This document shows positions 4,461 to 62,869 of a stretch of DNA of 64,000 bases, one piece after another (position 1 is the first letter of the stretch; every line of letters starts with the position of its first letter). The stretch is taken from NCBI RefSeq assembly GCF_029227855.1, contig NZ_CP074358.1. The stretch is one strand, 5' to 3'. The position numbers and the translations under genes were made by a program. The DNA is from Escherichia coli. Lineage in GTDB: Bacteria; Pseudomonadota; Gammaproteobacteria; Enterobacterales; Enterobacteriaceae. A model generated the notes under the pieces. The model made no database searches and had not been told where the DNA came from. It worked only from the letters and a program-made list of their open reading frames with translations.

Positions 4461-4742
4461 CTGGTTTATTGCAACTGAAGGTGTGAAGGTGGTGAAAGAT
4501 AGTGCCAGCCTGTGGCCGCAGATCATCACGGCGGTTTTGTCTGCCGGTACTGCATTTGGTGGTGTGTGGTACGGGCAGTGGCGGATAACACAGCGAGAGG
4601 AGGAAGCTGCAACAGCGAAGCTGGTCAGCGAACGTCTCTTTATTGCCACGGAGCTGGTTTTTCTGCTGGAGAGGTTTGCGCAGCGTTGTGCTCCAGCAGC
4701 AACAGCAACTGTGGAGCACGATCAGGATGGCAGAGGAGAAGC
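4453..4742 (+). pseudogene. Membrane-protein gene truncated by the IS3 insertion (about 96 native codons retained)
   Basis: Strong RBS aaaggaaaaaacATG; hydrophobic segment LWPQIITAVLSAGTAFGGVWYG; reading frame runs into the IS3 left inverted repeat and stops inside it. Confidence 0.4.
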
Positions 4743-4798
4743 TGATCTTACCCAGCAATAGTGGACACGCGGCTAAGTGAGTAAACTCTCAGTCAGAG

Positions 4799-5107
4799 GT
4801 GACTCACATGACAAAAACAGTATCAACCAGTAAAAAACCCCGTAAACAGCATTCGCCTGAATTTCGCAGTGAAGCCCTGAAGCTTGCTGAACGCATCGGT
4901 GTTACTGCCGCAGCCCGTGAACTCAGCCTGTATGAATCACAACTCTACAACTGGCGCAGTAAACAGCAAAATCAGCAGACGTCTTCTGAACGTGAACTGG
5001 AGATGTCTACCGAGATTGCACGTCTCAAACGCCAGCTGGCAGAACGGGATGAAGAGCTGGCTATCCTCCAAAAGGCCGCGACATACTTCGCGAAGCGCCT
5101 GAAATGA
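4799..5107 (+). CDS. IS3 OrfA (transposase N-terminal HTH part)
   Basis: 102 aa, helix-turn-helix and leucine-zipper-like C-terminus ([19 protein letters not shown]); inside the IS3 ends. Confidence 0.9.
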
Positions 5108-5970
5108 AGTATGTCTTTATTGAAAAACATCAGGCTGAGTTCAGCATCAAAGCAATGTGCCGCGTGCTCCGGGTGGCCCGCAGCGGCTGGTATACGTGGT
5201 GTCAGCGGCGGACAAGGATAAGCACGCGTCAGCAGTTCCGCCAACACTGCGACAGCGTTGTCCTCGCGGCTTTTACCCGGTCAAAACAGCGTTACGGTGC
5301 CCCACGCCTGACGGATGAACTGCGTGCTCAGGGTTACCCCTTTAACGTAAAAACCGTGGCGGCAAGCCTGCGCCGTCAGGGACTGAGGGCAAAGGCCTCC
5401 CGGAAGTTCAGCCCGGTCAGCTACCGCGCACACGGCCTGCCTGTGTCAGAAAATCTGTTGGAGCAGGATTTTTACGCCAGTGGCCCGAACCAGAAGTGGG
5501 CAGGAGACATCACGTACTTACGTACAGATGAAGGCTGGCTGTATCTGGCAGTGGTCATTGACCTGTGGTCACGTGCCGTTATTGGCTGGTCAATGTCGCC
5601 ACGCATGACGGCGCAACTGGCCTGCGATGCCCTGCAGATGGCGCTGTGGCGGCGTAAGAGGCCCCGGAACGTTATCGTTCACACGGACCGTGGAGGCCAG
5701 TACTGTTCAGCAGATTATCAGGCGCAACTGAAGCGGCATAATCTGCGTGGAAGTATGAGCGCAAAAGGTTGCTGCTACGATAATGCCTGCGTGGAAAGCT
5801 TCTTTCATTCGCTGAAAGTGGAATGTATCCATGGAGAACACTTTATCAGCCGGGAAATAATGCGGGCAACGGTGTTTAATTATATCGAATGTGATTACAA
5901 TCGGTGGCGGCGGCACAGTTGGTGTGGCGGCCTCAGTCCGGAACAATTTGAAAACAAGAACCTCGCTTAG
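5104..5970 (+). CDS. IS3 OrfB (transposase catalytic DDE part; expressed as OrfAB fusion by -1 frameshift)
   Basis: 288 aa with DDE/rve integrase core (WAGDITYL..., HTDRGGQY..., E in SFFHSLKVE). Confidence 0.9.
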
Positions 5971-6223
5971 GCCTGTGTCCATATTACGTGGGTAGGATCA
6001 GTTTGCATAAAAACGCAGCTATGTTGGGAGTAAAAGCACTGCGGTTATCACGAGAACTGAGAATGTTATGTGGCCTCCCTCTGCACGGCCTTTCCGATAC
6101 ACTATCGCCAACGAGGTTGGTATTGTTGAAAGCCAGAGGTAAAACACTCCAAAAGGAGTACGAAATGGTAAAGAAGTCTAAAAAGACCGAGCAAGAGATT
6201 GAGGATTTCATAAAGGGGACATC

Positions 6224-7015
6224 ATGAGTGGCCCACAATTGCTTTCCCTGCCTGGTTCTTTTTTAACGCCTCCGGCAACATTACCTGTTGCCATTGATTA
6301 CCCGGCTGCGCTGGCACTACGTCAGATGGCACTTGTGCAGGGCGAATTACCAAAATATCTGTTGGCGCCGGAGATCAGCGCCCTGCTCCGCTATGTACCG
6401 GATCTGCACCGCAAAATGTTGCTGGCCACCCTGTGGAACACGGGCGCACGTATAAACGAAGCGCTGGCGCTGACGCGGGGAGATTTTTCACTGGCGCCGC
6501 CATATCCGTTCGTACAGCTGGCCACGCTCAAACAACGGACTGAAAAAGCGACCAGAACGGCAGGCCGTGTCCCTGCTGGCAGTCAGGTGCATCGCCTGGT
6601 TCCCCTGTCCGATACACAATACGTCAGCCAACTGCAGATGATGGTGGCCACGCTGAAAATCCCACTGGAGCGCAGAAACAAACGAACCGGAAGAATGGAG
6701 AAGGCGCGCATCTGGGAAATCACCGACCGCACAGTTCGCACCTGGCTGAATGAAGCTGTAGAGGCCGCTGCGGCCGACGGCGTGACGTTCTCTGTTCCGG
6801 TTACCCCACATACTTTCCGCCATTCCTACGCGATGCATATGCTGTATGCTGGTATTCCGCTGAAGGTGCTGCAGAGCCTGATGGGGCACAAGTCGATTAG
6901 TTCGACAGATGTGTACACGAAGGTGTTTGCGCTGGATGTGGCTGCACGGCACCGGGTGCAGTTTTCGATGCCTGAGTCCGATGCTGTCACAATGCTGAAA
7001 AACAGACACGCATAA
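6224..7015 (+). CDS. resD: Tyrosine site-specific recombinase, ResD-like plasmid multimer resolvase
   Basis: C-terminal catalytic region with HTFRHSYAMHM...LMGHKSISSTDVYTKV (R..H..R..Y tyrosine recombinase signature). Confidence 0.8.
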   Translation: MSGPQLLSLPGSFLTPPATLPVAIDYPAALALRQMALVQGELPKYLLAPEISALLRYVPDLHRKMLLATLWNTGARINEALALTRGDFSLAPPYPFVQLATLKQRTEKATRTAGRVPAGSQVHRLVPLSDTQYVSQLQMMVATLKIPLERRNKRTGRMEKARIWEITDRTVRTWLNEAVEAAAADGVTFSVPVTPHTFRHSYAMHMLYAGIPLKVLQSLMGHKSISSTDVYTKVFALDVAARHRVQFSMPESDAVTMLKNRHA

Positions 7016-12012: not shown

Positions 12013-12939
12013 ATGCCAAACTGGTGCGCCAATCGTATGTATTTTTCTGCCGAACCGGCACAGATTGCTGAGATTAAACGACTGGCCAGCGGTGCCGTCA
12101 CACCGTTTTATCGCCGCGCCACAAATGAAGGTATTCAGTTGTTTCTGGCCGGAAGTGCCGGACTTCTGCAAACCACTGAAGATGTGCGGTTTGAACCATG
12201 CCCCGGACTGAGCGCTGCCGGACGTGGCGTTGTATCGACGGAAAATATTGCGTTCACCCGCTGGCTGACACTCCTGCAGGACAGTGTACTGCTGGATGAG
12301 CAAAACTGCCTGATGCTGCATGAACTCTGGCTGCAGAGCGGTACTGGACAGCGTCGCTGGGAAGGATTACCGGATGATGCCAGGGAAACCATCACTGTGC
12401 ATTTCACCGCAAAAAGAGGTGACTGGTGTGACATCTGGGGTAACGAGGATATATCGGTGTGGTGGAACCGTCTGTGTGACAACGTACTGCCGGAAAAAAC
12501 CATGCCGTTTGACCTGTTGACGGTTCTGCCGACCCGCCTGGATGTTGAAGTAAATGGCTTTAACGGTGGTGTTCTGAACGGTGTTCCTTCTGCATATCAC
12601 TGGTATACAGAACGGTATGGCGTGAAGTGGCCTTGTGGGTATGACCTGAATATCAGCAGTCAGGGAGAAAACTTCATTCAGGTTGATTTCGACACGCCGT
12701 GGTGTCAGCCGGAAAGCGACGTTATTGCAGAATTAAGCCGCCGTTTCAGCTGCACGCTGGAGCACTGGTTTGCCGAACAGGGCTGTGATTTCTGTGGCTG
12801 GCAGTTGTATGAGCGCGGAGAGCTCGTTGATGTGCTGTGGGGGGAACTGGAATGGTCTTCCCCGACAGATGACGATGAGCTGCCGGAAGTCACCGGACCT
12901 GCGTGGATAGTCGACAATGTGGCGCATTATGGCGGATGA
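12013..12939 (+). CDS. Conserved hypothetical protein (308 aa), Cys/Trp-rich, first + strand gene of the leading-region block
   Basis: ATG 12013 with aggaga RBS; followed by hairpin terminator; no catalytic motif recognised. Confidence 0.55.
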   Translation: MPNWCANRMYFSAEPAQIAEIKRLASGAVTPFYRRATNEGIQLFLAGSAGLLQTTEDVRFEPCPGLSAAGRGVVSTENIAFTRWLTLLQDSVLLDEQNCLMLHELWLQSGTGQRRWEGLPDDARETITVHFTAKRGDWCDIWGNEDISVWWNRLCDNVLPEKTMPFDLLTVLPTRLDVEVNGFNGGVLNGVPSAYHWYTERYGVKWPCGYDLNISSQGENFIQVDFDTPWCQPESDVIAELSRRFSCTLEHWFAEQGCDFCGWQLYERGELVDVLWGELEWSSPTDDDELPEVTGPAWIVDNVAHYGG

Positions 12940-12952
12940 AGTATGACGGAGA

Positions 12953-12978
12953 CGGGCGGGCAACCGCCCGTTTCTTTT
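12953..12978 (+). terminator. Rho-independent terminator-like hairpin
   Basis: cgggcggg-caac-cgcccg followed by tttctttt. Confidence 0.55.
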
Positions 12979-13323
12979 CCGGTAAAGGATGTCGCCGTGC
13001 TCCTCTTTTTACTGCGCCGGCTGACGCGGCGCGGCATAAACGCTGCCTGTGGTCAGTGTCCCGCGTCCGGTGGGTACGGGACGGGCGCTTTTACCGCTCC
13101 CGGCTGGCGTCGGTGACAGTGTACGCCAGCCTGTCGCCCTTTTCTGATGAGCGCCCTTCAAGCCGCTTTCGCGGCATAGCCTTGCCGTCAAAAAGACGAC
13201 GGCTGCGGTATTCCACGGTCGGCCTGACCCGTTACCGGACGCGGTGAACAGCCCACAGGCAGCGGGGAACGGGCACCACAGGGGTGCCCTCCCGGTGCCT
13301 TCTGTAAGAGAAGGAGTGTTGTT

Positions 13324-14007
13324 ATGTCCCGTTTTGTCCTCGGTAACTGCATCGATGTTATGGCCCGTATTCCTGATAACGCCATTGATTTCATACTGAC
13401 TGACCCGCCATATCTCGTCGGTTTCCGTGACCGTTCCGGGCGCACCATCGCCGGTGATAAAACCGACGAATGGCTGCAACCGGCCTGTAATGAAATGTAC
13501 CGCGTGCTGAAAAAAGATGCGCTGATGGTGAGCTTCTATGGCTGGAACCGCGTCGATCGCTTTATGGCCGCCTGGAAAAATGCGGGATTCAGCGTGGTTG
13601 GCCACCTGGTATTTACCAAAACCTACACATCGAAGGCCGCATATGTGGGCTATCGCCACGAATGCGCTTACATCCTGGCAAAAGGGCGTCCGGCGCTGCC
13701 TCAGAAGCCATTGCCCGACGTGCTGGGCTGGAAATATTCAGGCAACCGCCATCACCCGACGGAAAAGCCTGTTACCAGCCTGCAACCACTGATTGAGAGC
13801 TTCACACACCCGAACGCGATTGTGCTGGACCCGTTTGCAGGCAGCGGCTCAACCTGTGTGGCTGCCCTTCAGTCCAGACGCCGGTATATCGGTATCGAGC
13901 TGCTTGAACAGTATCACCGTGCCGGACAGCAACGACTGGCCGCCGTGCAACGGGCCATGCAGCAGGGGGCCGCGAATAATAACTGGTTTGAACCGGAGGC
14001 TGCGTAA
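13324..14007 (+). CDS. Orphan DNA methyltransferase (N6-adenine/N4-cytosine type, beta-class motif order)
   Basis: DPPY motif IV (ILTDPPYLVGF) precedes motif I (FAGSGSTCVAA); RBS agaaggag; no restriction endonuclease partner nearby. Confidence 0.85.
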   Translation: MSRFVLGNCIDVMARIPDNAIDFILTDPPYLVGFRDRSGRTIAGDKTDEWLQPACNEMYRVLKKDALMVSFYGWNRVDRFMAAWKNAGFSVVGHLVFTKTYTSKAAYVGYRHECAYILAKGRPALPQKPLPDVLGWKYSGNRHHPTEKPVTSLQPLIESFTHPNAIVLDPFAGSGSTCVAALQSRRRYIGIELLEQYHRAGQQRLAAVQRAMQQGAANNNWFEPEAA

Positions 14008-14229
14008 ATGAACTATGCCGGACACGAAAACCTTCGTGCTGAAGTGGCGGAGGTGGCCAATGCCATGTGTGACCTTCGGGCCAGGCTGAACGATATGGAG
14101 CATCGCTGTCGCTTTGATTCCGATGTGCTCGTTGAACGCCTGGCACGCCAGACGCTGTATCGCGCCAATCGCCTGTTCATGGAGGCATATACCGAAATTC
14201 TTGAACTGGATGCGTGCTTCAAAGATTAA
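14008..14229 (+). CDS. Small hypothetical protein (73 aa), translationally coupled to the methyltransferase
   Basis: ATG directly abuts the upstream TAA stop. Confidence 0.45.
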   Translation: MNYAGHENLRAEVAEVANAMCDLRARLNDMEHRCRFDSDVLVERLARQTLYRANRLFMEAYTEILELDACFKD

Positions 14230-14241
14230 GGGGGAGACGAA

Positions 14242-14676
14242 ATGTACGGAACATGCAAAACGCTCTGCCGGGAGCTGGCAGCAAAGTATCCGGGAGACAC
14301 GCCGCTGATGCTGCTTATCTGGTCCCCGGAAGAGATTCAGGCCCTCGCTGACGGAATGGATATTTCCCTGTCCGATCATGAAATCAGGACTGTCCTGGCG
14401 CGCCTGGAGGACATCCCGGAAGACCAGCGGACTGAATCCGGTATTTCTTCCGCCGCTGCGATGGAGATTATCAGCAACGTGAGCGAAAACCGCCAGGTGA
14501 CCGTCTCTGCTGAACTGCTGGCGTCCCTGATTCAGACTGCTGAACAGGCACTGTGGAAACGTGAATGGGCCGCCCGGGATCATGGCCTCGCCGTCCCGGA
14601 ATGCGTCACCCGCCGTCAGGCGGTGATTAATCAGGCCCGCACCCTGCTGAAAAACAACACACACGAAAACGACTGA
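14242..14676 (+). CDS. DUF1380-like leading-region protein (paralog of 16394-16816)
   Basis: Shares acidic helical pattern and RQVTV(S/P)A motif with the 16394 ORF; family assignment from memory. Confidence 0.55.
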
Positions 14677-15293
14677 TGTTATCGCCGCCTGCCCTGCGGG
14701 CGGCGATACAGGGAGAACGCTTAATCATGAACGAAAACTGCACGCTGAACGCACTGATTTGTCGTCACGCCCGCAACCTGCTGCTGGCGCAGGGCTGGCC
14801 GGAGGAGACGGATGTTGATCAGCGAGATCCACAGAACTATCCGGGCTGGATCAGCATTTACGTGCGGCTGGATGCGCCCCGGCTGGCGACGTTACTCGTC
14901 AACCGCCACGATTGCGTACTGCCGCCGGTCCTGGCTTCCGCCATGCAAAAACTGACCGGAACCGGGGCGGAGCTGGTACTGTCCGGCAGTCAGTGGCAGT
15001 CGCTGCCGGTACTTCCGGCAGACGGAACGCAGGTGTCTTTCCCGTATGCCGGCGAATGGCTGATCGAAGACGAAATCAGGGCTGTACTTGCGGCGGTGCG
15101 CGATGCGGTACGCAGTGTCAGTTGCCGGGTGGCAGAAGATGCACGGCGTATCCGGGCGGCGCTGACCACCACCGGTCAGACGTTGCTGACCCGCCAGACG
15201 CGCCGCTTTCGTCTGGTTGTGAAGGAAAGCGATTACCCCTGCTGGCTTGATGAAGATGACGAAAATCTGCCGTGGTGCTCGATGCCATTCTGA
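14676..15293 (+). CDS. Hypothetical protein (205 aa if coupled start TGATG at 14676; 188 aa if ATG 14727)
   Basis: Start overlaps upstream stop; alternative ATG at 14727 has gggaga RBS. Confidence 0.45.
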
Positions 15294-15505
15294 ACCGTGG
15301 CGCACGTTTTTCCTCTGTGGAAATGTACCTGGTCTGTGAGTGTGTGGAGCATATCCTGGCCAGTGGTCTGGTCTGTGATGTGCTGCGTATACCAGATGAA
15401 CCGTCCCGTCGCTGGTTTGACCGGGATATTCTGCGGGAGGTTGTTCTGGAGGCACGGGATGAAATCCGCAGCATGGCGGATGCACTGGCGAAAATCCGGA
15501 AATGA
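15272..15505 (+). CDS. Small hypothetical protein (77 aa, GTG start)
   Basis: Overlaps end of upstream ORF by 22 nt; followed by hairpin ggcgg-ggaaaaatct-ccgcc with T-rich tail. Confidence 0.3.
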
Positions 15506-15921
15506 TGACGCTGGCGGGGAAAAATCTCCGCCTTTTCCAGCCGGTCCTCGGACAGAGCACAAAGGAAGTCGCCGCCGGGTCCGCTTTACCCGGCCATGCA
15601 GGGCATGGCCTTGTGGTTTTTCAGTTATGTGGCCTCAGCGTCGTGTGCGGGCTGTGCCGTGCCTCCATCTTAGCCGGGCTGGCGTTGATGCAAGGGTACG
15701 CTTCGCCGCTGCGGTCACCCGGTCCCTCCTTCCCGTCTGCCGTGATTTTCCGGTCGTTCACCCGCTCAGATTTCGCGGTCTCACCCTGCAACTCCCGTCA
15801 GCCGTGTGCGTCAGGCTGCGGCTTCCCTTGCGCCCCTGCATCCCCGCCTGTTCGCCCGGCTTTTATGGAGGCACGGCACCGCCCGGTGTCGCGGAATATG
15901 TGAACAACAGAGGAAAACATC

Positions 15922-16347
15922 ATGCAATATGCGAAACCTGTCACTCTGAATGTTGAAGAGTGCGACCGTCTCTCCTTTCTGCCGTATCTGTTTGGCAACG
16001 ATTTTCTGTATGCCGAGGCGTATGTGTACGCGCTGGCGCAAAAAATGATGCCGGAATATCAGGGAGGCTTCTGGCACTTCATCCGCCTGCCGGACGGTGG
16101 CGGTTACATGATGCCGGATGGCGACCGTTTCCACATGGTGAACGGTGCAAACTGGTTTGACCGTACCGTGAGTGCTGATGCCGCAGGCATCATCCTGACC
16201 TCCCTTGTGATTAACCGCCAGTTGTGGCTGTACCACGACAGCGGGGATGCAGGACTGACCCAGCTTTACCGGATGCGCGATGCGCAGTTGTGGCGTCACA
16301 TCGAATTTCACCCCGAATGCAACGCGATTTACGCGGCTCTGGACTGA
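15922..16347 (+). CDS. klcA: Antirestriction protein, KlcA/ArdB family
   Basis: [31 protein letters not shown] and [12 protein letters not shown] match recalled KlcA/ArdB pattern; 141 aa. Confidence 0.8.
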
Positions 16348-16393
16348 TTAACGGACGGGGCGGCAATGCCGCCCCTGTAAAGGAGACGAGAAC

Positions 16394-16816
16394 ATGTACT
16401 GTACTGTTAAAGAAATTATCCGCGAAGTGCTGGATACAGACGTGCCGGACAGTGAATGCGTTTTTGCCGTAGTGCTGACCCGTGGGGATGTGCGTCACAT
16501 AGCCCAGGACTGGAGTCTGACAGACGATGAGCTGGAAACCGTCATGCAGCGGCTGGACGATGCCTTTGAATATGGTGCGGATGTCAGCGTTGTTCACGGC
16601 GTTGTTCGTGAACTGATGGAAGAAAAGCGCGCCAGCCGTCAGGTGACAGTCCCGGCGGTGATGCTGGAAAAAGTGATGGCGCTGGCAGGCAGTGAAATGA
16701 AGCGCCTGTATGCCGTCGGGAGTGAGAACGGGGGCGACGGTGACGCATTCGTCAGGGAGGAACGCGAAGCAATGGACGTTGTGTTACAGGCGCTGGACGG
16801 GGAGACGATGTCATGA
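16394..16816 (+). CDS. DUF1380-like leading-region protein (140 aa)
   Basis: Acidic protein immediately after klcA, paralogous to 14242 ORF. Confidence 0.55.
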   Translation: MYCTVKEIIREVLDTDVPDSECVFAVVLTRGDVRHIAQDWSLTDDELETVMQRLDDAFEYGADVSVVHGVVRELMEEKRASRQVTVPAVMLEKVMALAGSEMKRLYAVGSENGGDGDAFVREEREAMDVVLQALDGETMS

Positions 16817-17004
16817 ATATCAGCACAGAAACCCGCGAAATTCTGCGTAATTACAGGGCCGTGATTAATGCGCGGCGTCGTGAAATGGGGCAGAAACCGC
16901 TCACCACCGCGCAGATTGTTGATGAAATCTGCGATTTTGTGGCGAATCAGCAGGCGGTTTTCCTGGGCGGTCACTACATCTTACAGGGTAGCAGAAACAG
17001 GTGA
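16813..17004 (+). CDS. Small hypothetical protein (63 aa), coupled (ATGA overlap)
   Basis: Start overlaps stop of upstream ORF. Confidence 0.4.
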   Translation: MNISTETREILRNYRAVINARRREMGQKPLTTAQIVDEICDFVANQQAVFLGGHYILQGSRNR

Positions 17005-17169
17005 TACAGGGGCAGGCGGTGGAGGCCGCCTGTCAGTCCGCGCGAAAACCCCTGGCAGGCTGACGCCTGCCGGAAGGGAAGCGGACCACGCTGGCGCGTC
17101 GCCCGTTACCCTTCCCGTCTGTGATGTGTCTGACTCAGGAGTGTTTCTTTCTTATGTTATGGAACTGTT

Positions 17170-17625
17170 CCTGATGTTGTTGTTCCTTTATCTGCTGCTC
17201 TGATTCTGACTACTGCAGTGTTGTTCTGTCTGCCGGGCGCACCTTCGGCTCCCGGCATCCCGGCAAAAGGCCGCCGGGATGTAAGGGGCAACGCCGTTTC
17301 GCGCACGCGCTCTCCGTCGTTGCGGCGGGTCCCTGCTCATTGCCTGCCGGTGCCACACACCCGTATGAGTCCCTGTCGCCGGGGGCTGATACAGCCACAA
17401 CCTGCCGCACTGACTGTCCAGGGTAAATGAACAGCCCACAAAATTTTTTACCCAAAACCCGGTAAAAAATTTTGCGTTCTGCCCAGGACAGGTGCGTCAG
17501 GCCGTGGCAGTGATGCCCCTTGCGGCGAAGGTTCTCAAACGGGTGAAGTTCATACCACAGGGAATACAGCAGCAGGTTCCCGCGAAACGTCAAAACCGCG
17601 GCTCCCGAAACTCAACGGGTGATGT
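17170..17625. repeat. Frpo/ssi-like structured non-coding repeat, copy A (short form)
   Basis: Shares 5' block ctgattctgactactgcagtgttg...cgggcgcaccttcggctcccggc and 3' block with copies B and C; lacks ~190 bp internal block; hairpin 17437-17476. Confidence 0.6.
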
Positions 17626-17853
17626 TCTTTAAAAATCAGGATTTATTTCAGGCTCCGGCAATACGCATTTATGTGTTCTGTCAGTCATCCGGCTGGCAGG
17701 TAATGAGAACGCAGGAACAGAAGGAGGAAAACACCGGAGAACGTCAGACGCAGATATGAAAAAAGCAGGTCAGGGACCTGCTTAATCCACACCGCAGAGA
17801 CTGCACGAACAGTCTTTACGGTTTCATTAATTAACGTCATAAGAGGCTAAATT

Positions 17854-18084
17854 ATGACAGTAAGTATTGTTTCACCTTCCGCAGCGGCTGTAAAGCCCCG
17901 CCGTCATCCCCGTTGCAGACGCGAAGACATCCCCGCGCCGGAAATTGACCCCGTGCTGAAAGCCTTCGGGCGACACATTGCCCGGAGTTTTCACCGGGGG
18001 CGTGGTGTACACATCCCCGCCATGAAAAACACGGCCTTCGGGCAGGTGCTCCGCACACTCGAACTGAAACGCGCTTTTAACTGA
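17854..18084 (+). CDS. Small basic hypothetical protein (76 aa)
   Basis: First ORF after repeat copy A; RBS agagg about 10 nt upstream. Confidence 0.35.
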   Translation: MTVSIVSPSAAAVKPRRHPRCRREDIPAPEIDPVLKAFGRHIARSFHRGRGVHIPAMKNTAFGQVLRTLELKRAFN

Positions 18085-20108: not shown

Positions 20109-20264
20109 TGACACAGGGCCGGCGGGAGGATAAATGCCTGTCTGCCCGCGCCGGGAAAAAACGCGCGCCGGTGGCGCTGAAAGGGGCCGCGCTCACGCGC
20201 CGCCCCTTTCATTACGCGGACGTTCTGATGGGGGCTTCTGTTTCTTCATGCCTGTCATTTGTCT

Positions 20265-20965
20265 GTTACTGATGATGTTGTTGTTCCTGCTACTGCTACT
20301 GCTACTGCTACTGCTACTGCTACTGTTCTTCTTTTTCCTGCTGCTCTGATTCTGACTACTGCAGTGTTGTCCTGTCTGCCGGGCGCACCTTCGGCTCCCG
20401 GCTGCCTGGCGGCATCCGGTCGTCAGGCCCGACTCCGACAGGCAGCTGCTGGCGCACCTGCCAGTCTCCGCCGAACCCGCTGGCGCGGTTTCGGGCTGTC
20501 GCTACGGTCCGATGCGTGAAAACCCCGGGCTTGCAGCGACCGTTCCGGTCGCGCCACCCTTGTCGCGCCGTGGCCTGCGCTCCTGGCATCCCGGCAAAAG
20601 GCCGCCGGGATGTAAGGGGCAACGCCGTTTCGCAAACCGCGCTTCACGTCGTTGCGGCGGGTCCCTGCCCGTTGTTCTGTCCGGTGCCATTCACCTGTTT
20701 AAGCCCCTGTCGCCGGGGGCAAAGACAGCCACAACCGTCTCCGCCAGTCCAGGGGTGAAATGTACATCCCGCAAAACTTTTTGCCCAAAAGCAGGCAAAA
20801 ACTTTTGCGGTCTGCCCCCGGACAGTCGTTTCCGTCCGTGGCAGTGATGCCCCTTGCGGCGAAGGTTCTCAAAAAGGTGATGGTGAATACCGGAGGGAAC
20901 AAAAGGCAGGTCCCCGCAAAACGTCAAAACCGCGGCTCCCGAAACTCAAAAGATGATGGGGGCTG
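20265..20965. repeat. Frpo/ssi-like structured non-coding repeat, copy B (long form), immediately upstream of ssb
   Basis: Near-identical to copy C over ~620 bp; hairpin ccgcaaaactttttgcc-caaaagca-ggcaaaaacttttgcgg at 20769-20810. Confidence 0.6.
20287..20325. repeat. Hexanucleotide microsatellite (CTGCTA)x6.5
   Basis: Six perfect tandem ctgcta units plus ctg, at the 5' edge of repeat copy B; absent from copies A and C. Confidence 0.9.
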
Positions 20966-25056: not shown

Positions 25057-25249
25057 TGCGGCAACAATCACACGGATTTCCCGTGAACGGTCTGAATGAG
25101 CGGATTATTTTCAGGGAAAGTGAGTGTGGTCAGCGTGCAGGTATATGGGCTATGATGTGCCCGGCGCTTGAGGCTTTCTGCCTCATGACGTGAAGGTGGT
25201 TTGTTGCCGTGTTGTGTGGCAGAAAGAAGATAGCCCCGTAGTAAGTTAA

Positions 25250-25320
25250 TTTTCATTAACCACCACGAGGCATCCCTATGTCTAGTCCACATCAGGATAG
25301 CCTCTTACCGCGCTTTGCGC
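25250..25320 (-). ncRNA. sok: Candidate Sok-like antisense RNA of the hok/mok locus (approximate coordinates)
   Basis: Inferred from hok/sok architecture; region antisense to the mok translation-initiation region. Confidence 0.35.
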
Positions 25321-25490
25321 AAGGAGAAGAAGGCCATGAAACTACCACGAAGTTCCCTTGTCTGGTGTGTGTTGATCGTGTGTCTCACACTGTTGATATT
25401 CACTTATCTGACACGAAAATCGCTGTGCGAGATTCGTTACAGAGACGGACACAGGGAGGTGGCGGCTTTCATGGCTTACGAATCCGGTAA
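25278..25490 (+). CDS. mok: Mok-like overlapping reading frame (modulator of hok translation)
   Basis: 70-codon ORF overlapping hok in another frame, as in hok/sok loci. Confidence 0.5.
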
Positions 25491-29247: not shown

Positions 29248-29354
29248 AAGAAATTTGACTTCGTTCAAATATCAGAGTTTTTATGATTTAAAAAGGTGAC
29301 AGTACGAAAGATAATTAGTATATTAATTACGTGGTTAATGCCACGTTAAAATTT

Positions 29355-29435
29355 GAATTTGAAAATCGCCGATGCAGGGAGTTCTCTCCTCCCTGCATCG
29401 ACTGTCCATAGAATCCTTTGTGAGGAGGTTCCTAT
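29355..29435 (-). ncRNA. finP: FinP antisense RNA (approximate), complementary to the traJ leader
   Basis: 12-bp perfect hairpin cgatgcagggag-ttctctc-ctccctgcatcg at 29370-29400 in the traJ 5' UTR; architecture of FinOP systems. Confidence 0.5.
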
Positions 29436-30123
29436 GTATCCGATGGATCGTATTCAACAAAAACATGCTCGTCAAATAGATCTGCTGGAAAATCTGACGG
29501 CAGTTATTCAGGATTATCCAAATCCAGCCTGTATCAGGGACGAAACTGGAAAATTTATTTTTTGCAATACGCTGTTTCATGAGTCATTTCTTACACAAGA
29601 TCAAAGTGCTGAAAAATGGCTTCTGTCGCAGAGAGATTTTTGTGAATTGATCTCTGTCACAGAGATGGAAGCATACAGGAATGAGCATACGCATCTTAAT
29701 CTTGTAGAGGATGTTTTTATTCAGAACAGATTCTGGACAATATCTGTCCAGTCATTTCTTAATGGACACAGAAATATCATTCTGTGGCAATTTTATGATG
29801 CTGCTCATGTTCGTCATAAAGACAGTTATAATCAAAAAACGATTGTCAGTGATGATATCAGAAATATAATCAGAAGAATGAGTGATGATTCTTCTGTATC
29901 ATCATATGTAAATGATGTCTTTTACTTATATAGCACCGGAATCAGTCATAATGCTATAGCAAGAATATTAAACATATCCATCTCCACATCAAAGAAACAC
30001 GCGTCTCTGATATGCGACTACTTCTCTGTTTCTAATAAAGATGAGTTAATCATCTTACTCTACAATAAAAAGTTTATTCATTATTTGTACGAGAAGGCTA
30101 TGTGTATCATAAATACGCGTTAA
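29434..30123 (+). CDS. traJ: TraJ transfer activator (229 aa)
   Basis: ATG 29434 with gaggagg RBS; AT-rich gene; position between traM and traY. Confidence 0.85.
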   Translation: MYPMDRIQQKHARQIDLLENLTAVIQDYPNPACIRDETGKFIFCNTLFHESFLTQDQSAEKWLLSQRDFCELISVTEMEAYRNEHTHLNLVEDVFIQNRFWTISVQSFLNGHRNIILWQFYDAAHVRHKDSYNQKTIVSDDIRNIIRRMSDDSSVSSYVNDVFYLYSTGISHNAIARILNISISTSKKHASLICDYFSVSNKDELIILLYNKKFIHYLYEKAMCIINTR

Positions 30124-60376: not shown

Positions 60377-61233
60377 AAAAAAGCCTCCATCAGAGAGAGG
60401 AGGCAGGGAAATAAGGCTTAAAAGGAAATAACTTCCGTACCCGAAAGGAAGCCAGTCCACTGAATTATTTACCACAATAATACTGACGACTAAAAGGGAG
60501 GGGCAGAAAAATGAATGGATTCAGAAACAGTTCACGGAACGGTCAGGTCTGGCGCTGGCAGCGTGCCGGAAGCCGGGCCGTTATTCTGGAGGTCAGTGGA
60601 CGCTGGATGGATGCGGCAGAAGCATGGCGACGGGCTGCCGGTGTTGCGCCCCGGACAGACTGGCGGCAGTTTGCCCGAAAAAGGGCTGCACACTGCCACC
60701 GGCGCTGCCGGGGAAGGGTGTAACGAAAAAAGCAGCCTTCATTACTCCTGGAGTCAGAAGGCTGAATAATGCATGAGATTTACTTTTTTAATCTCCGGTC
60801 GGGTAGTATGACCGGACAACTCTGAGTAGCACAGAGTTTTTTTCCGTATTAAGTCGTGATTTTATATTTTGTGATTTATTTCACAAAATAAGGTGTTATT
60901 CAATGTGTGCTGCAATATTCAGGATGCCTGAAATACAGGTGCCATTTATTTGATATGGAGAATAACATGAGGGAATATATTCCACTGGTATTATTTATCT
61001 TTTCATAGCCGGTATTGTCTGCAGATATTTATGGGCAGGTTGTTCGTGTACTGGGCCAGCAGGAAAGTCTGTGCAGAAGCTTACGGTTTGAATAAGTTGA
61101 ACCCCATAAGACTCTGATTAATATAATTTGTGGCACACAGATACTTGCGGGAAAAGTGTTTCGCACTGAATCTTAACTGGAAATGTAAACTATTTTTAAC
61201 ACCCCCAAAATCCTTTTGGGGAACAACTCATGC

Positions 61234-61551: not shown

Positions 61552-61888
61552 ACCTTATTGGGTGTATTAAAAACAGTAGGCTGCCAAAGTCTTAAACAAG
61601 TTTCAATTCTCCATGACTGCTCAACATCAGACAGAGGGAATTCCCATTCTGGACCAGCGGGAGCATACGAACAATAATTTACGGTTTCGCGCTATAGCTG
61701 GCTCAAGTTAGGTTGGACCCTGAATCTCCAGACAACCAATATCTGATCGCGCCAGTGGTGGCAGTTATTAAGCAACAGGGAATGTAGTATTATCGCGGCG
61801 GGTGTCTGAGCCTTTCTGGTTCAGGCAAGACGCAGGTACCAGAAATGCGAAGACCCCACTTGTTAATCCATTAACTCGTGAGGTCTGC

Positions 61889-62095
61889 ATGAAGTACCTT
61901 AACACTACTGATTGTAGCCTCTTCCTTGCAGAGAGGTCAAAGTTTATGACGAAATATGCCCTTATCGGGTTGCTCGCCGTGTGCGCCACGGTGTTGTGTT
62001 TTTCACTGATATTCAGGGAACGGTTATGTGAGCTGAATATTCACAGAGGAAATACAGTGGTGCAGGTAACTCTGGCCTACGAAGCACGGAAGTAA
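61889..62095 (+). CDS. srnB: SrnB/Hok-family membrane toxin (68-aa frame; Hok-like core from internal Met at 61946)
   Basis: MKYLNTTDCSLFLAERSKFMTKYALIGLLAVCATVLCFSLIFRERLCELNIHRGNTVVQVTLAYEARK; hairpin cggggac-ggaa-gtccccg downstream at ~62104-62128. Confidence 0.85.
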   Translation: MKYLNTTDCSLFLAERSKFMTKYALIGLLAVCATVLCFSLIFRERLCELNIHRGNTVVQVTLAYEARK

Positions 62096-62714: not shown

Positions 62715-62810
62715 TAAGGTGGCAGGGAACTGGTTCTGATGTGGATTTACAGGAGCCAGAAAAGTGAAAACCCCGATAATCTTCTCTAACTTTGGCGAGT
62801 CCAGAAAGAT
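62715..62810 (-). ncRNA. copA: CopA-like antisense RNA (approximate), targeting the repA1 leader (CopT)
   Basis: Located between copB and tap; sense strand carries tttggcg loop motif as in CopT; coordinates inferred. Confidence 0.4.
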
Positions 62811-62869
62811 TACCGGGGCTAACAAGAAACTGCATAGAAGCTGTTGCTCTATGCGGGGAGTATAGTTAT

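Follow-up and report, generated by a model that had tools for sequence, protein, structure and literature searches.

The block at positions 14242-17004 of the 64,000-base Escherichia coli sequence analyzed here (contig NZ_CP074358.1, hereafter the window) is, as judged from its similarity to sequenced plasmids, very probably a conserved leading-region "establishment" block of the IncF/IncI type. This block and the genes directly upstream of it are organized into two transcription units. Cassette 1 comprises a hairpin and the genes for an adenine DNA methyltransferase, a YubE-family protein, the first of two DUF1380 paralogs (DUF1380-A), and YchA; cassette 2 comprises a hairpin of the class 2/ssp2 type and the genes for KlcA, the second paralog (DUF1380-B), and a protein of 63 amino acids (aa). 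A first-pass annotation, made from the sequence alone, had described a klcA/ardB anti-restriction gene flanked by two paralogs and by small open reading frames (ORFs) with overlapping start and stop codons. All of these ORFs lie where it placed them, are present in the mechanically compiled ORF list, and belong to the plus strand. It missed the correspondence of the block to the leading region of F, R64, and pESBL, the frameshift in the ychA gene, and the predicted single-stranded DNA (ssDNA) promoter hairpin upstream of klcA. The block as a whole is already known as an extremely common segment of plasmid backbones; the logic of its expression was elucidated in 2025-2026.

The gene order and orientation are shared with plasmid F (NC_002483, 54166-57837), in which the series consists of a methylase, a 73-aa protein, a DUF1380 protein, a protein of ~258-259 aa, a gap of ~414 nucleotides (nt), an antirestriction protein, a second DUF1380 protein, and a 63-aa protein. 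The genes have equal or near-equal lengths, and the encoded proteins are 91-98% identical to those of the window. The same order is found in the IncI1 plasmid pESBL, where the genes are listed as M.EcoGIX, Hp9, Hp10, YchA/Hp11, KlcA/ArdB, Hp12, and Hp13 (PMC4288162, Table 2), with the lengths observed in the window except for ychA (777 nt in pESBL vs. 780 nt in the intact form here). The IncK2/Z plasmid pMbl488 also carries the block, and R64 provides a further IncI1/IncK counterpart. The window differs from F, R64, pESBL, and pMbl488 by a private deletion of 1 bp in ychA, which disrupts the gene; moreover, between the 63-aa gene and ssb it contains an extra Frpo-like element and a DUF3560/methyltransferase operon, which are absent from this place in F. 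The block is flanked by umuDC/dinI on one side and by ssb-psiB-psiA on the other, and FinP and the traJ 5' untranslated region (UTR) are located at about 29.3 kb of the window; therefore, it is assigned to the leading region. Because of the known geometry of F, the minus strand is taken as the transferred strand. At least 5000 plasmids in PLSDB are at least 90% identical to a 3.1-kb stretch (top matches, 99.9%), mostly conjugative plasmids from Escherichia, Klebsiella, Salmonella, and Shigella; over the whole block, most of the best 5000 records show 90-95% identity. The ratios of nonsynonymous to synonymous substitution rates (dN/dS) of the six intact genes range from 0.05 to 0.29 in comparisons with F and pMbl488, pointing to purifying selection. 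No Rfam family matched positions 14242-17004 at gathering thresholds.

Table 1. Genes and regulatory elements of the two cassettes (window coordinates)
Feature	Position	Strand	Supporting match or remark
Large imperfect hairpin upstream of the methyltransferase gene, candidate class 3 ssDNA promoter	13041..13264	-	inverted repeat I2
M.EcoGIX/YfeA-type adenine DNA methyltransferase, 227 aa, first gene of cassette 1	13324..14007	+	PHROG DNA methyltransferase, 7.5e-61
YubE-family protein, 73 aa	14008..14229	+	phrog_4830, 5.8e-36
DUF1380 paralog A, 144 aa (YcgB/YubF; Hp10 of pESBL)	14242..14676	+	PF07128, E = 2.3e-50
ychA-type gene, 259 aa when intact, split here by a 1-bp deletion at about 15270	14727..15505	+	
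Intrinsic-terminator-like stem-loop with T-rich tail, probable end of cassette 1	15592..15620	+	consensus match only
Imperfect hairpin of ~240 nt on the transferred strand, predicted homologue of the class 2/ssp2 promoter	15648..15885	-	inverted repeat I1
klcA/ardB anti-restriction gene, 141 aa (YubI/YfgB of F)	15922..16347	+	PF03230, E = 1.9e-26
DUF1380 paralog B, 140 aa (YcjA/YubJ; Hp12 of pESBL)	16394..16816	+	PF07128, E = 6.1e-5
Basic 63-aa protein (Hp13 of pESBL)	16813..17004	+	start overlaps DUF1380-B stop (ATGA)

The division into two cassettes (Table 1) follows from the ychA-klcA interval. Its 416 non-coding bases contain a terminator-like site detected by a consensus scan (GGCCATGCAGGGCATGGCC followed by TTGTGGTTTT) and a long hairpin on the transferred strand, and because these two elements separate the upstream genes from the downstream ones, the array of coupled ORFs proposed in the first-pass annotation does not form a single unit. 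The arms of the hairpin (15648-15679 and 15854-15885) form a stem whose base, 15648/15885, is located 37 nt ahead of the klcA ATG. Folded as ssDNA, the element reaches -70.5 kcal/mol vs. a shuffle mean of -50.8 kcal/mol (z = -6.0), and none of 200 shuffles was as stable. It is at least 95% identical in 4326 of the best 5000 PLSDB records, and is thus more conserved than the whole block. The same hairpin occupies the same place in loci where KlcA is only 40-48% identical. Among six aligned sequences, 16 of the 55 predicted base pairs are changed on both sides with pairing retained, and all of them have an unbroken basal stem; this covariation is equally expected for ssDNA and RNA and for either strand. 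Reading of the fold suggests a candidate -35 box TTGCAT (15693-15688) and a candidate -10 box TAAGAT (15672-15667) on the non-template arm, which are oriented for klcA, with a 3-nt bubble in the -10 box. The TTGCA and TAnnnT cores are retained in five of the six aligned elements; the klcA copy of pMbl488 carries an insertion at the -35 box. A scan for sigma70-like double-stranded promoters gave no match on either strand of 12900-17700 vs. 2.1 expected from shuffles, which fits operons that rely on ssDNA promoters.

In pESBL, a class 2 ssDNA promoter lies 5' of klcA and ardA, and has homologues in F (PMC12672017). The F element, termed ssp2, is the promoter of yfgB, whose product is an ArdB homologue (93% identity to R64 ArdB); without ssp2, F is transferred 5-fold less into EcoKI recipients and 36-fold less into EcoGIII recipients, and the element also acts as a roadblock that stalls complementary-strand synthesis until UvrD acts (bioRxiv 10.64898/2026.01.09.698686). 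The element upstream of klcA in the window is predicted to correspond to this published class 2/ssp2 promoter (PMC12672017; bioRxiv 10.64898/2026.01.09.698686), as both are long imperfect hairpins on the transferred strand located directly 5' of klcA; the link to F ssp2 is drawn from the orthologous position in F. The description of class 2 in pESBL, with a near-identical copy 5' of ardA, is matched by pMbl488, where a second copy precedes ardA (L003:15959-16298) and shares 91% identity over 344 nt with the window element. The methyltransferase gene at the head of cassette 1 is likewise preceded by a large imperfect hairpin, the arms of which (13041-13071 and 13234-13264) are 84% complementary; the ssDNA fold of the minus strand of 12940-13323 reaches -109.7 kcal/mol (z = -7.75). 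A class 3 ssDNA promoter was placed upstream of the methyltransferase gene (PMC12672017), and the hairpin found here is a candidate for this class.

According to Masai and Arai (1997), as cited in PMC12672017, a hairpin of the transferred strand rebuilds the -35 and -10 boxes in the Frpo/class 1 ssDNA promoters. The element upstream of klcA would have this principle in common with Frpo and is treated as a separate class in PMC12672017. When compared by BLAST with the entire window, it matched only itself, so that no sequence similarity to the two Frpo-like copies of the window was detected. These copies, at 17164-17624 and 20310-20958, are represented by an element of ~460 nt with blocks that are 75-98% identical, and are located upstream of the operon encoding a 76-aa protein, a DUF3560 protein, and a methyltransferase, and upstream of ssb, respectively; they are probably ssDNA promoters of the Frpo/ssp1 type. 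Short tandem CTG/CTA-rich units in a 12-nt register (family D1) occupy 20263-20340, just upstream of the second copy.

The Pfam Antirestrict domain covers residues 45-141 of the klcA product, and phrog_10132 (anti-restriction) was matched at 9.2e-20. Residues 5-141 align with residues 6-142 of the solved RP4 KlcA (PDB 2KMG, E = 1.8e-18), and residues 11-141 align with the solved ArdB (PDB 2WJ9, E = 3e-7), in both cases over the full length. These alignments span the conserved motifs, and location in the leading region is a further common feature. Thus, the 141-aa ORF was correctly recognized as KlcA/ArdB in the first-pass annotation, and the motifs quoted there are present. The protein is 97.9% identical to its F counterpart (dN/dS 0.05), and is predicted to counter type I restriction, as published in the context of the F and R64 orthologues. 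In the deposited annotation of the plasmid CP057601.1 (L002 10047-10349), klcA begins 41 codons late and encodes 100 aa; the 141-aa form is preferred because of its alignment to the solved KlcA and ArdB. Cassette 1 begins with a methyltransferase that is 93.8% identical to the F methylase, YfeA, which in turn is 91% identical to M.EcoGIX (PMC4288162); domain PF01555 is present in its divergent homologues. The start codon of the next gene, termed yfeB in the LC744499 annotation, immediately abuts the methyltransferase stop codon. Its 73-aa product did not match any Pfam family in the library version used; homologues of this protein are marked PF27407 YubE, and its dN/dS values are 0.11-0.13.

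The gene between DUF1380-A and the terminator-like site, named ychA after the source records, is disrupted in the window. In comparison with LC744499, one C is absent from a run of C at ~15270 (CTG-CCG vs. CTGCCCG), and the gene is split into ORFs at 14676-15293 (205 aa) and 15272-15505 (77 aa). CP057601.1, which is 99.9% identical, encodes one intact 259-aa coding sequence, and in silico restoration of the missing C yields a 259-aa protein. Conservation supports the ATG at 14727, not 14676, as the start of the gene; divergent homologues begin at the equivalent position. The possibility that the two ORFs are genuine translationally coupled genes, or that the overlap is a programmed frameshift site, is hardly credible: both frames are open here with a 22-nt overlap, as such a reading would require; however, the split is due to a single missing base, the 77-aa ORF begins with GTG and lacks a ribosome-binding site, and divergent YchA homologues are single proteins of 257-266 aa. 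Moreover, a 60-nt probe (15241-15300) matched 607 PLSDB records, none at 99% identity or more and 472 at 95-99%, with a single differing position in the best hits among the matches listed; since none of the 607 reaches 99%, none of these records shares the deletion. Thus, among the ORFs of 205, 77, and 63 aa reported with overlapping start and stop codons, all exist and the overlap between DUF1380-B and the 63-aa gene is real, whereas the 205/77-aa overlap is a frameshift artefact, because the two ORFs are the halves of one gene. The deletion is either a private mutation or a homopolymer sequencing error. No Pfam family was found for YchA, and its AlphaFold model has no solved structural relative. 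A homology between YchA and DUF1380, considered in view of the shared (D/E)EIR(T/A)VLA stretch and of DNA repeat D15, was rejected (hhalign probability 0.4%, E = 0.16).

The two proteins of about 140 aa are paralogs, as proposed in the first-pass annotation. DUF1380-A matches positions 1-136 of the 137-position PF07128 profile, as well as phrog_9024 (1.7e-70), whereas the matches of DUF1380-B are weak but significant (PF07128 over residues 1-99; phrog_9024, 7.9e-6); BLASTP aligns the two proteins at 29% identity over 111 aa (E = 1e-8). The RQVTV(S/P)A motif is present and aligned in both, the C-terminal hairpin region of DUF1380-B aligns in the family alignment, and the source records assign DUF1380-B to the DUF1380 family or name it YcjA. 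The family is small: a joint profile of A and B retrieved 270 representatives at E ≤ 0.001 among 1.84 billion proteins, many of them fragments, and the full-length members fall into two types, A and B. The dN/dS of DUF1380-A relative to F is 0.22. Although a PHROG family exists, a tblastn search with DUF1380-A found no match in 50,697 phage records. A full-text literature search on DUF1380 returned nothing about its function. In the ranking of leading-region families by Samuel et al. (2024) (PMC11541004, Suppl. file 3), DUF1380/YcgB is family 7 (n = 3957), KlcAHS family 9, YchA family 10, and YcjA/YubJ/PF07128 family 14; all of these except KlcA are labelled uncharacterised. Two assignments were considered and discarded, namely an acyl-carrier-like protein (Pfam PP-binding E = 0.018, not significant; no conserved serine at the GxxS equivalent in the family alignment) and, for DUF1380-B, the NCBIfam FabG2 (18 bits vs. 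a cutoff of 339, i.e., noise).

The acidity reported for both paralogs is also borne out, with net charges of -8 (isoelectric point, pI, 4.9) for DUF1380-A and -16 (pI 4.3) for DUF1380-B. It bears on the suggestion that DUF1380 proteins, especially those of the acidic B type, are DNA mimics similar to ArdA and Ocr that fill the DNA-binding groove of restriction or other DNA-targeting defence systems. Members of the B-type subfamily have diverged to about 25-38% identity, yet all remain acidic (net -10 to -16, 16-22% D+E), and their genes adjoin klcA in an anti-restriction operon predicted to be expressed early; ArdA and Ocr are likewise small, acidic, and produced early from the leading region, a resemblance by analogy only. 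However, A-type proteins are less acidic (net -2 to -11), and classic DNA mimics are far more charged than DUF1380-A. The AlphaFold (AF2) model of DUF1380-A (predicted local distance difference test score 84.5) is all-alpha with a helical hairpin at the C-terminus, a fold search with this model retrieved only generic helical hairpins, and neither sequence nor fold similarity was detected between DUF1380-A and ArdA or Ocr. So far the mimicry proposed in the first-pass annotation is without support, and we consider it distinctly unlikely.

Comparison of divergent loci shows that the two DUF1380 subfamilies have cassette-specific partners, which are retained down to roughly 25-40% protein identity. 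The A-type genes always follow a PF01555 methyltransferase gene and a YubE-family gene of 72-74 aa, and are in turn followed by a YchA-like gene wherever the contig reaches far enough. The B-type genes directly follow klcA in F, pMbl488, and five further loci (L004, L005, L006, L007, and L008), at a distance of about 41-59 nt, and a gene of 58-63 aa comes next in F, pMbl488, L007, and L008, its start overlapping the B-type stop codon. F and two divergent loci retain the ATGA overlap between DUF1380-B and the 63-aa gene: the 63-aa protein is 98.4% identical to its F counterpart and 46.6% identical in L007/L008, with both the position and the 4-nt overlap kept. This protein is basic (pI 9.8; dN/dS 0-0.05), and has neither a significant Pfam or PDB match nor a PHROG family. 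Moreover, in-frame fusions of DUF1380-A and YchA were identified in three 375-aa proteins (P0123, P0360, and P0305), joined at a QAR(N/T)LL motif common to both proteins; P0360 is found on 15 contigs, and a fourth protein, P0274 (418 aa), seems to be fused by read-through. The leading region of L007 (a contig of GCA_040225255.1) as a whole corresponds to both cassettes in diverged form; its cassette contains two YchA paralogs (4718-5491 and 5919-6707) that are ~430 nt apart and 43% and 25% identical to the window YchA, respectively, and a close relative of the second gene product, P0380, is annotated as a Pectobacterium versatile protein.

This linkage could also be explained if DUF1380-B served KlcA/ArdB, and DUF1380-A served the methyltransferase, as a cofactor or chaperone affecting activity, stability, or timing. 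In every divergent locus examined, the subfamilies occur with their respective upstream partners, and the gap between klcA and the B-type gene remains short (see above). We nevertheless consider such a role unlikely: klcA/ardB cloned alone confers anti-restriction in vivo, and RP4 klcA is presumably followed by klcB rather than by a DUF1380 gene. In addition, the fusion partner of DUF1380-A is YchA, not the methyltransferase, and deletion of M.EcoGIX alone decreased the transfer of pESBL into restricting recipients (PMC4288162), a result that does not by itself prove independence of the enzyme from DUF1380-A.

Based on these associations, the DUF1380 paralogs, YchA, and the 63-aa protein may represent cassette-specific accessory factors for establishment or anti-defence in particular recipients. 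An anti-defence role of the two paralogs, the other option named in the first-pass annotation, is plausible. DUF1380-A probably acts with YchA, its natural fusion partner in some plasmids, and our best guess for the acidic DUF1380-B is that it acts with the translationally coupled basic 63-aa protein. We tentatively propose, as a possibility, that these four proteins are effectors that co-evolve in pairs (DUF1380-A and YchA; DUF1380-B and the 63-aa protein), each pair being encoded behind a different anti-restriction gene and directed against barriers beyond classical restriction. In transposon sequencing of pESBL, Hp10, Hp11, KlcA/ArdB, Hp12, and Hp13 all scored 1.00, "non-essential", for both maintenance and transfer into K-12 (PMC4288162), as expected for factors that are needed only in certain recipients. 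The same result bears on another explanation, in which DUF1380, YchA, and the 63-aa protein serve establishment otherwise, for example by processing the incoming single strand, regulating second-strand synthesis, or moderating host stress responses. The neighboring genes ssb, psiB, psiA, and a ParB-like gene act on ssDNA and the SOS response, and the adjacent hairpin would control the timing of conversion via UvrD; however, these proteins have no recognizable nucleic-acid-binding or enzymatic domains, and transfer into K-12, which would likewise require single-strand handling, proceeds without their genes. Thus, we regard this explanation as rather unlikely.

Several observations weigh against the proposed accessory roles and the expression model as a whole. 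Pfam, NCBIfam, and PADLOC assign no function to the DUF1380, YchA, YubE, or 63-aa proteins, and PHROGs places the uncharacterised ones (73-aa, 259-aa, DUF1380) only in families of unknown function. A search of the PDB with single uncharacterised proteins and with their family profiles found no significant sequence match, nor are there fold relatives of the DUF1380-A and YchA models. The ychA gene is broken in the window copy, and is therefore dispensable at least here, and the synteny was established from about ten loci, several of which are on short contigs. Regarding expression, the spacer between the candidate -35 and -10 boxes on the non-template arm is 15 nt long, and the class 3 label of the 13041-13264 hairpin is a candidate assignment from position and fold alone.

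By homology with the published F and pESBL systems, expression of the two cassettes is expected to proceed as follows. The transferred single strand would fold into long hairpins that mimic double-stranded promoters, so that host RNA polymerase could transcribe the anti-restriction genes ahead of complementary-strand synthesis, and conversion to double-stranded DNA would then turn these promoters off. The klcA-proximal hairpin would also stall complementary-strand synthesis until it is resolved by UvrD. Both cassettes would be expressed early, on the strand that first enters the recipient; KlcA/ArdB would counter type I restriction, and the M.EcoGIX-type methyltransferase, active on single strands, would add partial, sequence-independent protection.

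Other features of the window were noted outside the two cassettes. The closest plasmid, pRHB21-C11_2 (CP057601.1), matches the queried 3.1 kb at 99.9% identity; as it is 63,983 bp long, vs. 64,000 bases here, the window may be nearly a whole plasmid of such type. Rfam matches typical of IncF plasmids are the antisense RNA AS-pc01 just downstream of the block (17760-17859, minus strand), two sok copies (25162-25338 and 61800-61956), the traJ 5' UTR and FinP (29329-29440), AS-pc02 (60620-60802), and CopA (62762-62852).

The block itself, carried by thousands of resistance and virulence plasmids, adds nothing new; the present analysis adds the diagnosis of the ychA frameshift, the two-cassette anatomy with the hairpin covariation, the subfamily-specific synteny, the DUF1380-A::YchA fusions, and two confident models without solved fold relatives. 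DUF1380-A, YchA, and DUF1380-B are predicted to be produced within minutes of plasmid entry, alongside the known anti-restriction genes, and the cassette partners, natural fusions, and conserved overlap of DUF1380-B with the 63-aa gene narrow the experiments to be done. If the four proteins do act in two pairs against barriers beyond classical restriction, this would explain how genes that are among the commonest of leading regions can be dispensable in K-12 matings. Moreover, should any of the DUF1380, YchA, or 63-aa proteins block a host defence, it would offer a point of attack against the dissemination of IncF and IncI resistance plasmids.

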